Origin: Candidatus Paceibacter sp.
GTDB lineage: Bacteria; Patescibacteriota; Minisyncoccia; Phycocordibacterales; BOKC01
Direction: 5' to 3'
Assembly: GCA_020724885.1 (NCBI GenBank)
Contig: DYGD01000002.1
Location: forward strand, 3,038-67,037
DNA length: 64,000 nucleotides
In this document: positions 16,078-18,797 of the stretch, piece after piece
Layout: each line of letters opens with the position of its first letter
Numbering within the stretch: position 1 is the stretch's first letter
Program-made: the position numbers and the translations under genes
The notes under the pieces: model-generated
What the model was told of the DNA's origin: nothing
The model's input: the letters and a program-made list of their open reading frames with translations, nothing else
The model's database searches: none

Positions 16078-16221
16078 GCCCCCGACACCAACTTTGGCAT
16101 CGTTGCATTGTGTGTTTTCGTAATTTTTGTCGCAATACTTCAGATTTTAAGTAAGAAATTATTACTTACTTTAATCTTTGGAGTTGCAACAAAAACACAA
16201 TGCCAAAGTTGGCGTCGGGGG
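16078..16221 (-). ncRNA. ~145-nt stem-loop insertion / intervening sequence in 23S (variable helix near E. coli ~1720-1750) closed by a 22-bp stem
   Basis: cccccgacaccaactttggcat ... atgccaaagttggcgtcggggg inverted repeat (one G-U); the closing stem and ~40 nt of loop are similar to the element at 18655..18797. Confidence 0.55.
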
Positions 16222-18625
16222 CAGGCCTTATTGCGAACTTACGGCCGCTTTTTTGCCGAGTTCCTTGGGGACCTCTCACTCGTTCGCCTTGGTCTTCTCG
16301 ACCTGACTACCTGTGTCGGTTTTGCGGTACGGTTTGAATCTGCTTAACCTTAGAAGTTTTTCTTGGAAGCGCGCTTTACAAAATTTGATCACCCGAAGGT
16401 TCACATTTTCGTTCTGCTTGGGTTTGTGCCTCCCGGATTTTCCTGGGAAACGCCCTCACAGCGCGAACATAAATCCAATAATATGCTTTGTATACTGCAC
16501 TCCGTCCCTCCATCGAAACAAATTCAAGTCACGGAATATTAACCGTGTGTCCATCACCTTCGGCTTTCGCCATCGGCTTAGGCCCGACTAACCCTTCCCT
16601 GATTATCATCGGGAAGGAAACCTTAGTCTTTCGGCGTCCCGGTTTCTCACCGGGATTGCGGTTACTTGTGCCAACATTCTTACTTCCACACGCTCCAGCA
16701 TGGGTTACCCCTTTGCCTTCAACGCAGAGTGGAATACTCTCCTACCACATGTCAATGCGAAGCACTGACACATCCTCAGTTTCGGTATCATGCTTGAGCC
16801 CCGATTATCTTTGGCGCAAAATCTCTGAATAAGTGAGCTGTTACGCTTTCTTTAAAGGATGGCTGCTTCTAAGCCAACCTCCTTATTGTCAGAGAAATCT
16901 TACAACCTTACGCGCACTTAGCATGAATTTAGGGACCTTAACTAGAGATCTGGGCTGTTTCCCTTTTGACCAATGGAGCTTAGCCCCCACAGTCTAACTG
17001 CCAGATTCTGGCTGCGAGTATTCGGAGTTTGATAGGTTTGACGAGGTTTCCCCCTATTCAAACCTTCCAGTGCTCTACCCCCCGCAGAAACATCTGACGC
17101 TAACCCTAAAGCTATTTCGGAGAGAACCAGCTATTACCAAGTTCGATTAGCTTTTCACTGCTTACCACAAGTCATCCGATGGAGTCGCACGACCAACCGG
17201 TTCGGGCCTCCGCACGCCTTTCGGCGCACTTCACCCTGCTCATGGCAAGATCACTTGGCTTCGGGTCTCATGTATACGACTATTATTTCGCGCTTTTAAC
17301 ACTCGGTTTCCCTGTGGCTCCACCCAGTCAAGGGCTTAGCCAGCCGCATACATAAACTCGTTGGCTCATTCTTCAATAGGCACGCCGTGATGGCTCCCCG
17401 CTTTTGAGTTGTAGAAAACTCTACTTCCCAAAAGTGGGGAGCCACTCCGACTCCTTGTAGGCATATGGTTTCAGGTCTATTTCACCGCCCTCACCGGGCT
17501 GCTTTTCACCTTTCCCTCACGGTACTAGTTCACTATCGGTCTCTAACGATATTTAGCCTTACCGGTTAGTTCCGGCAGATTCACCCGAGCTATTGATGTC
17601 TCGAGTTACTCAAGAATAGCAACCAAGGAGTTTTTCTTGTTTTCGCCTACAGGGCTATCACCTCCTGGGGCTTCTCTTTCCAGAGAATTCGGCTAACAAA
17701 AAAATATTTTTTACTCCTCTGGCTAGGCCGTGTTGCTATCTTACAACCCCCCTCCCCAGTTTTGAATTATGGAAATTTCCATATCTCAAAACTGGGGAGG
17801 GGTTTGGGCTCTTTCCTTTTCGCTCGCCGCTACTAAGAAAATTCCTATTGGTCTCTTTTCCTCCGGGTACTGAAATGTTTTACTTCCCCGGGTTTGCATC
17901 TCGAACTGGTCGAGATTTCCGCCAAAAGCGGAAGGGTTTCCCCATTCGGACATCTCCGGATCAAAGGTTGCTAGGCACCTCCCCGAAGCATATCGCCGCC
18001 AAGCCGCGTCCTTCATCGCTCGTTAGAACCTAGGCATCCACCATACGCCCTTGAATTCCCATCAGGAAATTCAAAAACCGCTGTCAATGCGAAGCATTGA
18101 CCGCGGACACACGCAGACAGGACGCAGAAATACGCAGAAATCTAACTCGAAACCACATGGCTACGAATCAAGATTCTGCGACCTTCTGCGTTCGTTCTGC
18201 GATATTCTGCGGTCAGTGCTTCGCACTGACATTTTTGCTCTCTTTTATACAATCAATCTGCGCAAAGCGCAGATTTGCCTGTCCCGAAACCCTATCTTCC
18301 GAAAGAATTCCGGGATAATCTGTCTACAACAAATAAAGACCCCTCGACTACGCTCGGAGTAAACTCCTTAGTAATCAAAAGTTTTGTTGTGACAGGATTT
18401 TGTCTGCGATATCGGGCTATGCCCAACTCGCGGAACTTTTGTCAAACAACATTCCTTCATCCATTCTGGCTCTATCTTCCGGCCAAATTTCTGTTGTTTA
18501 ACAGAAATTTGGCCGAGAGACAAAAAAACCGCCTTTTAAGCGGATTTGACTATCACATAACGATAAAATCACCGTCTCCGCTTGAGTTTTGATATTAAAA
18601 AATTTATTAACATAACTTTATTCTA

Positions 18626-18653
18626 ATTATAGGAAACCGAAGAAAGAAGTCAA
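18626..18653 (-). promoter_or_regulatory. Sigma70-like promoter for 23S-5S transcript (TTGACT - 16 nt - TATAAT on minus strand)
   Basis: Reverse complement of 18648..18653 is TTGACT and of 18626..18631 is TATAAT, with 16-nt spacer, ~550 nt upstream of the 23S 5' end. The leader is rich in hairpins (gtcaatgcGAAGcattgac, gtcagtgcTTCGcactgac, atctgcgcAAAgcgcagat, ggccaaatttctgttGTTTaacagaaatttggcc). Confidence 0.55.
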
Positions 18654-18654
18654 G

Positions 18655-18797
18655 CCCCCGCACCTACTTTACCATCGTTGTGTTATGTTTTGAAAAATTT
18701 TTGTCGCACAACTTCAGAACAAGGTGAATAAATTTGTTCTGCTGGAATTCCCTAAATGCAACAAAACACAATGGCAAAGTAGGTGTGGAGGCAAGCC
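18655..18797 (-). repeat. Second copy of the 16078..16221 hairpin element, immediately upstream of the 23S promoter
   Basis: cacctactttaccatcgttgtgtt ... aacacaatggcaaagtaggtg inverted repeat. Internal tttttgtcgcacaacttcaga and gcaacaaaacacaatggcaaagt blocks align with 16120-16215. Confidence 0.55.

Follow-up and report, generated by a model that had tools for sequence, protein, structure and literature searches.

Hairpins in and near the rRNA genes of a Parcubacteria bacterium as probable copies of a small palindromic insertion element

The rRNA genes in a 64,000-nt stretch of a Candidatus Paceibacter sp. genome (contig DYGD01000002.1, positions 3,038 to 67,037; here called the window) carry long hairpins at sites where most of the relatives compared lack them: one inside the 23S gene, one just upstream of the 23S promoter, and one in the 16S leader. 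A preliminary description had grouped these three as a family by a short shared core, and had left their nature divided among RNase III processing stems, intervening sequences (IVSs) yielding a fragmented 23S rRNA, and a structured repeat resembling a miniature inverted-repeat transposable element (MITE). What are they, and how did they come to be there? The best explanation appears to be that they are copies of a small palindromic insertion element without an open reading frame (ORF), MITE-like, and circulating in one Nomurabacteria-like lineage of Parcubacteria; we consider this probable. Two of the copies are homologous, with compensated stems; copies are present here and absent from relatives, with flanking repeats and similar targets; and one is inserted in frame into a protein. 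Transposition is the mechanism we infer. The copies are as follows.

16078..16222, minus strand: E1, a 145-nt hairpin constituting all of 23S helix 63; assigned to subfamily A.
18654..18792, minus strand: E2, a 139-nt paralogue of E1, with the terminator of an MscS-like gene on one side and the 23S promoter's -35 box on the other.
2205..2284, minus strand: E3, an 80-nt hairpin assigned to subfamily B, between the 16S promoter and boxA.
36375..36450, minus strand: a fourth copy, with perfect 22-bp arms and subfamily A termini, in frame in tatD.

Coordinates are those of the 64,000-nt window, and the elements are read in the rRNA sense (minus strand). L-numbers (L005, L088, L135, etc.) are labels of related sequences fetched for comparison; relatives were fetched via the conserved gene order L10-L12-x-x-MscS-23S.

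The hairpin described inside the 23S gene is indeed there. In the Rfam large-subunit (LSU) rRNA alignment, E1 occupies the helix at model positions 1751-1777 and extends its apex by 120 nucleotides; from the flanking conserved sequence, compared with that of Escherichia coli, we take this to be helix 63, in domain IV. The predicted fold has a free energy of -74.3 kcal/mol (z=-12.0; all z-scores are against shuffled controls), with 39 consecutive bases of the 5' arm paired and a 19-nt bulge breaking the 3' arm; an inverted-repeat finder reports arms of 26 nt. The same helix in relatives L007 and L136 is an 18-nt hairpin, GCCCUUC-GCAA-GAAGGGC, with a 7-bp stem and a GCAA loop. It is likewise minimal in most of 119 Parcubacteria 23S loci collected with a helix-62 pattern. 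About 25 of the 119 have helix-63 inserts; these range from 35 to 430 nt, fall into many kinds with no relation to one another, and in two cases contain a GIY-YIG ORF. No E1-like insert is present in these 119 loci, L007, or L136, and an nhmmer profile built from E1 and E2 found no member among the 119, with L088 reached only at E=0.65. The GIY-YIG inserts in helix 63 of L046 and L084 were considered as ancestors of E1 and set aside: they share only a CCAC-UUUUGG-type basal stem with it, and homology is unconvincing. In both of these inserts the GIY-YIG reading frame passes through the closing stem.

The second hairpin also lies where it had been reported, abutting the -35 hexamer of the 23S promoter. 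E2 is predicted to fold at -58.8 kcal/mol (z=-7.2), with arms of 25 nt by the inverted-repeat finder. By BLAST, E1 and E2 are 72% identical over 151 nt (E=2.6e-16) in the same orientation, unpaired segments included, and the loop segments previously noted as common to the two fall inside this alignment. By this comparison they are unmistakably homologous. The preliminary description had suggested a covariation analysis; for this pair, the 36 base pairs of the common stem include four two-sided compensations, three one-sided changes with pairing kept, one alignment gap, and no mismatches, so that the stem differences preserve pairing throughout. The surroundings of E2 contain the following features.

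18626..18653, minus strand: 23S promoter, TTGACT-16 nt-TATAAT, scoring 11/12 in a sigma-70 scan.
18804..18833, minus strand: terminator-like hairpin, GCCCGGGG-taata-CCCCGGGC followed by UUUCUUCU, as read from the sequence.
18792..18798, minus strand: upstream copy of the E2 direct repeat, GGGCTTG.
18651..18657, minus strand: downstream copy of the E2 direct repeat, GGGCTTG, sharing bases with the E2 3' end and with the start of the -35 box.

The promoter call is supported by the invariance of TTGAC and TATAAT across five aligned relatives; the 3' end of E2 falls directly at its -35 hexamer. The terminator-like hairpin (hairpin part at 18833-18813, then a U-rich run) belongs to the MscS-like gene (Pfam PF05552) and lies between this gene and E2. 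Since it is upstream of the promoter and downstream of the terminator, E2 is outside the 23S transcription unit, and is probably untranscribed and not part of the pre-rRNA. The corresponding site is hairpin-free in L005/6 (80% MscS identity), L136/7, L140, and L141/2, all of which have a terminator, a short spacer, and the promoter; in L138/9, which also has no hairpin, the spacer is about 95 nt long and does not fold (z=+1.85). At the position of the E2 direct repeat, L005 carries the uninterrupted sequence AAAAGCTTGACTTC, and its AAAAGCTTGACT is what would be expected of the E2 site minus the element and one copy of the repeat. In L007, a sequence ahead of the promoter may be a decayed copy; it resembles the 3' arm only, does not fold (z=+1.1), and was treated as uncertain.

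The third hairpin was likewise found as described, in the 16S leader between a promoter (TTGACA-16-TATACT) and a boxA-like element.

2191..2203, minus strand: boxA-like element of the 16S leader, TGTTCTTTGACAA, immediately 3' of E3, as read from the sequence.

The name boxA is given for the likeness of TGTTCTTTGACAA to the boxA consensus. E3 is predicted to fold at -38.9 kcal/mol (z=-7.1), and a TGTGT direct repeat borders it on either side (2287-2283 and 2205-2201). No such element occurs in the 16S leader of L133 (70% SecF identity), where a short, unrelated hairpin is all that precedes the boxA-like sequence. The proposed three-element family thus needs qualification at this point: E1 and E2 are homologous, but the kinship of E3 is not supported by direct alignment statistics, and the 12-mer core said to unite the three is exact in E1 and E3 but has one mismatch in E2 (cacaatgGcaaag).

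There is indirect evidence for the membership of E3, consisting of an element in L135, an identical motif offset (see below), and the type of insertion site. In L135 (76% MscS identity), the place of E2 directly next to the -35 hexamer (TTGACA) is taken by an 80-nt hairpin (z=-7.9), the outer stem of which matches that of E3 at 15/15 positions of the 5' arm (TAGTAGATTTTGGCA) and 17/19 of the 3' arm, and the shared positions include arm mismatches; one element type is therefore found in the 16S leader of one genome and at the 23S promoter of another. At this promoter the window genome has the E2 type where L135 has the E3 type. The 23S leader of L088 has a further related hairpin just 3' of a boxA-like element, apparently inverted, as judged by the asymmetry of its arms.

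The tatD copy, picked from the inverted-repeat list for the window, extends the MITE-like reading beyond rRNA loci. The Pfam match to TatD is split around this hairpin, and an alignment with eight homologues (72-83% identity) defines an insert of 78 bp, or 26 residues (...EEGVY, then PHTFPPIAPTKSERVEYYRRKGVGVY, then AIVG...), which is absent from all eight. Within the TatD barrel, the insert separates a helix from the strand that follows, presumably on the non-catalytic face. It is bounded by a 9-bp direct repeat, GGGGTTTAC (36457-36449) and GGGGTGTAT (36379-36371), the copies of which agree at seven of nine positions; both differences are synonymous (GVY...GVY). Its terminus, CCCCCACACCT, matches that of E2, CCTCCACACCT, at 10/11 terminal bases, and from the ends inward both arms have about 60% gapless identity to those of E2.

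As judged by their ends, the elements appear to fall into two subfamilies: A, with termini CC(C/T)CC(G)ACRCC, comprising E1, E2, and the tatD copy; and B, with termini CC(G/C)G(T)TAGTAG, comprising E3 and the L135 element. A core, UUUGSCAY / RUGSYAAA, is common to both; as TTTGSCAY, it begins 13-15 nt from the hairpin end in E1, E2, E3, L135, and L088. In about 1.1 Mb of Parcubacteria sequence, the pattern CC[CT]CC(G)AC[AG]CC with a complementary end has three occurrences, those of E1, E2, and the tatD copy. The units are 76-145 nt long with complementary arms and no ORF, the tatD copy being read through in the frame of its host. With copies at four loci in the window, and empty orthologous sites in relatives at helix 63, the 23S promoter, the 16S leader, and tatD, each copy is best read as a gain. 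The inserts have discrete lengths bounded by direct repeats (78, 82-84, and 141 bp), and the junctions are as follows.

E2: GGGCTTG, 7/7.
L135 element: GGTTGAC, 7/7.
tatD copy: 7/9.
E3: TGTGT; in extended form GGGTGTGT / GGATGTGT, 7/8.
E1: GGCC only, native to the rRNA.
L088 element: CGAA only.

Among 5000 random pseudo-elements used as a control, junction repeats of at least 7 nt were seen in 0.8%, and of at least 5 nt in 14%. The 5' flanks are also alike (GAAAGGGCTTG, AAAAGGTTGA, GAAGGGGTTTA, AAGAGGGTGTGT, and ATAAGGCCTG), which suggests a preferred target; such a target would account for the likeness between the E1 and E2 flanks without any copying of helix 63 to the promoter. Lineage-specific insertions, direct repeats, and the L135 element at the same site all speak for the MITE-like repeat first proposed as having colonised rRNA loci.

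Could the resemblances have arisen without a mobile family? One conceivable account limits relatedness to E1 and E2, through a single copying of helix 63 to the promoter or through gene conversion, with E3 and the tatD hairpin alike by chance; we consider this unlikely. E1 and E2 are the only pair significant by direct alignment, the public collections yielded no further copies, and E2 has GCC...GGC closing pairs and a 5' flank (AAGGGCTTGCC) resembling that in the rRNA (AAGGCCTGCC). The flank is however equally explained by an ancestral promoter-upstream sequence plus a duplicated target, as read from L005 (AAAAGCTTGACT); the L135 element at the E2 site has stems of E3 type; and the tatD copy shares with E2 its termini (10/11), some 60% of its arms, the target type, and the apparent duplication. 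An independent origin of each hairpin in place, by template switching or by growth of existing helices, is very improbable. The likeness would then reflect a habit of this genome of forming hairpins with a C-run followed by (A/G)UUUUG, and the window does have many hairpins of the "C-rich + RTTTTG" kind (17746-17805, 17391-17444, 26754-26803, 39261-39297, and 24507-24539), but the 72% identity of E1 and E2 extends through unpaired segments, E3 and the L135 element agree at 15/15 and 17/19 positions with mismatches in common, and the inserts have discrete lengths with direct repeats at their borders.

Alternatively, the hairpins could be functional cis-elements of the rRNA operons, kept by selection beside the promoter and boxA: RNase III or other processing sites, boxB-like antitermination elements, or binding sites that mimic the extended helix 63 for an assembly or regulatory factor. 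Four copies outside mature rRNA have a TTGAC motif (-35 box or boxA) no more than 7 nt away, which would fit this, as would the compensating changes that keep the E1 and E2 hairpins intact and the fact that two lineages have a hairpin just ahead of the 23S -35 box, a third having what may be a decayed remnant there. The E. coli rrn leaders have a boxB hairpin in a position like that of E3. As boxB, E3 fits by its position just 5' of boxA but fails by conservation, L133 being without it. A boxA-like element is present in the 23S leader too, where an unrelated hairpin precedes it. E2 and the L135 element, upstream of a promoter and downstream of a terminator, are probably untranscribed; close relatives with the same promoter and boxA do without hairpins; the L088 copy is apparently inverted; a copy with the same termini sits in frame in tatD, unconnected to rRNA; and the flanking direct repeats indicate insertion events. 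Nor do E2 and E3 form a 5'/3' processing stem, which pairs sequences from both sides of a mature rRNA: each is a local hairpin complete in itself, and they lie 600 and 300 nt ahead of the mature 5' ends. Selection for such a function is an unlikely account of the hairpins.

Several points count against the MITE-like insertion element as well. The link between subfamilies A and B consists of a short core and positional agreement, and is not upheld by standard statistics: E3 gives a single 15/16-nt match to E1, with a BLAST E of about 1-2, a level equalled by about 0.2% of random 81-nt windows, and a covariance model of E1 plus E2 gives E3 11-14 bits (E 0.25-1.5), below generic or unrelated hairpins. 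(This model was dropped as a test of membership, since it mostly rewards any long hairpin.) On direct statistics, these scores therefore leave a two-member family, E1 and E2, with E3 as a candidate. The outermost 13 nt differ between the subfamilies, which is unusual for ends recognised by one transposase. Template switching can keep the arms of a palindrome complementary without selection, and the junctions of E1 and the L088 element have only the 4-nt repeats listed above. Four copies are seen, all within one 64-kb window; pattern scans of public collections found no others; and the sequence examined yielded no transposase or autonomous element whose ends match.

If the hairpins are nonetheless copies of one such element, it would insert as DNA, duplicating approximately 7-9 bp of a target consisting preferably of an A-run, a G-run, and a T-rich stretch (AAGGG-N-TT). 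Copies would survive only where a long hairpin is harmless, and the occupied sites may be of this kind: the solvent-exposed tip of helix 63 for E1, the untranscribed gap between terminator and -35 box for E2, the 16S leader just 5' of boxA for E3, and a helix-to-strand loop of TatD, in frame, for the fourth copy. E2 would have displaced the sequence formerly upstream of the -35 box, and E3 would have added a hairpin ahead of boxA; the sequence comparison gave no evidence that either has gained a function. That E1 forms the whole of helix 63 could be explained, as one possible route, by an element that inserted next to the old helix, which was then lost between GCC repeats.

In the pre-23S rRNA, E1 would fold as a long extension of helix 63, to be removed by RNase III, leaving a 23S rRNA in two pieces, or else retained. 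The earlier suggestion of RNase III stems or IVSs may hold at most for E1, which has the anatomy of an IVS, and not for E2, which precedes the promoter, or for E3, a local hairpin in the leader. By this anatomy and by its sporadic occurrence among relatives, E1 can be classed as an IVS-type insert. Excision would be the preferred outcome by analogy, because a duplex of such length and regularity is of the kind that RNase III cleaves; the data agree equally well with E1 being retained as an expansion segment of the mature rRNA. A tblastn search with E. coli Rnc found no RNase III gene inside the 64-kb window.

Searches for further copies were made by several routes. An exact-pattern scan with the E1/E2 block CTGAAGTNNTGCGACAAAAATT gave no matches in genome contigs; its single match in metagenome contigs was to an unrelated high-GC contig and is attributed to chance. 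A motif scan of viral contigs gave 134 matches, all of them without a complementary arm and therefore also due to chance. BLAST against phage and plasmid collections found no match to E1. Rfam has no family matching E1, E2, or E3, the only hits to known RNA families being sub-threshold matches to microRNA-precursor-like models, as expected of generic hairpins; nor did any Rfam intron model match at E1, E2, or E3, with group I introns found elsewhere in the 23S and 16S genes.

Two candidate mobilising enzymes were examined and rejected. An IS3-family insertion sequence (IS) element (rve plus HTH) lies just past the left edge of the window (L130, 16717-17872); its inverted repeats, TGGACCCC..TTT.GACAC, are only vaguely similar to the hairpin ends. 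A Y1_Tnp gene resembling those for transposases associated with repetitive extragenic palindromes (REPs), or RAYTs (54030-54722, minus strand), is flanked by a different, REP-like hairpin. The hairpins flanking this RAYT-like Y1 (IS200-like) gene, TAATGAC-ATCGTAA-GTCGTTA, are inverted relative to each other, at 54837-54817 and 54024-54004; more of them occur at 2643-2622, upstream of the 16S promoter, and at about 16380-16400 of L130, downstream of the 16S gene. Relatives also have a RAYT-like gene, near L10.

The rRNA genes themselves are unlinked and unusually ordered. On the minus strand, Rfam models match a bacterial 23S gene in pieces from 18064 down to 11569 and a 5S gene at 11474-11369; after 9 kb of protein genes (VWA, FtsW, glycosyltransferases, and SecDF) comes the 16S gene, with its own promoter and boxA, which begins at 1903 and runs off the left edge of the window. 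Group I introns are matched by Rfam in both the 23S and 16S genes, and there are LAGLIDADG endonuclease ORFs in both spans, three in the 23S and one in the 16S. Heavily interrupted rRNA genes are typical of bacteria of the candidate phyla radiation (CPR) (PMC11270868), and the top homologues of the neighbouring proteins in the window are from CPR bacteria of Parcubacteria/Nomurabacteria type. Identical DNA is found in JGI metagenome contig Ga0246236_1000113 and in Logan assemblies. One Logan contig, L002, continues past window position 17925 into the 23S gene of another organism, from about position 140 of the gene, and has an Illumina adapter at its end: the assembly is chimeric. A non-coding stretch of about 200 nt (~2422-2650, minus strand) separates secF from the 16S promoter; it has a terminator-like hairpin and U-run at its end and no match in Rfam, and could be a small RNA gene.

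Other hairpin inserts are present in the window and in Parcubacteria generally. When insert sites in other 23S loci were mapped by BLAST to the L007 23S gene, other families of hairpin inserts were found at several variable sites in one 23S gene, recurring at different sites between genomes: a single 23S gene in L105 has one family of ACTAGTAAC-type repeat hairpins at five to six variable sites, and in L099 and L012 pairs of hairpin inserts within the 23S are 98% and 87% identical. In the 23S leader of the window, a 150-nt hairpin (18082-18231, minus strand) has CGCAGAA repeats between two small terminal hairpins (GTCAGTGCGAAGCACTGAC and GTCAATGCTTCGCATTGAC). Its relatives include the helix-63 insert of L026 and inserts elsewhere in the 23S genes of L058, L060, and L021, and it represents a second family of hairpin inserts moving between rRNA sites. 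Nearer to the promoter (18522-18586, minus strand), the interval between promoter and boxA-like element has, here and in L005, L007, L135, L138, L141, and L088, a conserved pattern of CTCAAGCGG, a spacer of 30-45 nt, and CCGCTT(GA)-N-GCGG(G)-TTTTTT; the alternative pairings, CAAGCGG/CCGCTTG versus CCGCTT/AGCGGG plus U-run, look like a terminator/antiterminator switch.

Within the 23S gene, two helix extensions, at 17746-17805 and 17391-17444 (minus strand; the second in helix 25), have stems CCCCAGUUUUGAG and CCCCACUUUUGGG. The "C-run + RUUUUG" stem pattern of the E hairpins also occurs in these two extensions, and in intergenic hairpins at 39261-39297 and 24507-24539. A perfect 50-nt intergenic palindrome at 26754-26803 has an arm, CCAGCACCAGTTTTGG, very similar to the basal stems of the helix-63 inserts in L084 (CCAGCACCACTTTGG) and L128 (CCAGCACCATTTTTG). 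A 142-nt intergenic hairpin at 32872-33020, composed of GGTTGTATAG-type short repeats, resembles low-complexity 23S inserts such as those of L105.

How does the proposed family compare with known systems? IVSs have been described at helices 25 and 45 of the 23S rRNA in Salmonella, Campylobacter, Leptospira, and Coxiella (PMC2672173, PMC4990558, PMC11270868). Like these, E1 is an ORF-less stem-loop replacing the tip of a 23S helix that is variable and at the surface, sporadic in occurrence and with a long, near-perfect duplex; unlike them, it is in helix 63, where a literature search found no IVS reported, and has paralogues outside rRNA (at a promoter and in a protein gene). In Nostoc and Deinococcus, IS elements are documented within 23S genes and also at other genomic locations (PMC2672173), and Rickettsia palindromic elements (RPEs) are found both intergenically and in frame in protein-coding genes (PMC1779305). 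The RPEs are the closest likeness: palindromes of 80-150 bp in a reduced genome, both intergenic and in frame (26 residues, in tatD). Differences are the CPR host, the four copies seen, one of them in an rRNA helix, and the apparent target duplications and motif; homology to RPEs is unlikely, because the host is distant from the Rickettsiales. The present family behaves like the IVS, IS, and RPE systems and is probably unrelated to any of these in sequence.

Elements of MITE type include the Correia elements of Neisseria, and REPINs are hairpin-forming REP doublets mobilised by RAYT transposases. With both of these, the hairpins share small size, the absence of coding sequence, inverted-repeat ends, direct repeats, presence/absence polymorphism, and promoter-adjacent insertion. 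They differ in that no matching parent IS or transposase was found, the RAYT gene in the window being flanked by a different hairpin, and in that the ends differ between subfamilies.

Short insertion sequences in CPR rRNA genes were reportedly noted by Brown et al. in 2015. Many short, uncharacterised inserts in these genes have since been suggested to be IVS-like (Tsurumaki et al. 2024, PMC11270868). E1 fits this class: it is under 200 bp, with no group I or II intron and no ORF, and tops a stem-loop in a poorly conserved region; the 23S gene that carries it also has LAGLIDADG group I introns, as in the CPR insert class. The inserts are treated in PMC11270868 as features of rRNA genes, with no sequence families or non-rRNA copies described. 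There is a parallel of another kind if E1 is retained, as it would then form a long, flexible arm on the same helix as a eukaryotic expansion segment. ES27L in eukaryotes grows from H63, and is retained and functional. The two are not homologous, and E1 is lineage-specific and may be excised. Could mobile, target-specific hairpin families be a general source of the ORF-less rRNA inserts of CPR bacteria, with E1 kept as an arm, a bacterial counterpart of ES27L? This is doubtful; if true, elements moving into intergenic DNA and proteins would also found new helix extensions in rRNA, and copies landing on a -35 box or boxA would rewire rRNA promoter architecture.

For CPR rRNA genes, intron-type inserts are explained by homing endonucleases; the short ORF-less ones have hitherto been left uncharacterised or as "probably IVS" (PMC11270868). 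Here one such insert, E1, is tied by sequence to copies outside rRNA that bear marks of transposition, and this would therefore give a concrete origin to at least some rRNA IVSs and expansion segments. In practical terms, inserts of this kind break assemblies, confuse rRNA-based classification, and mimic regulatory hairpins. If the MITE-like reading is right, selfish palindromes inside genes, of the type known from Rickettsia, would extend to another lineage with reduced genomes.

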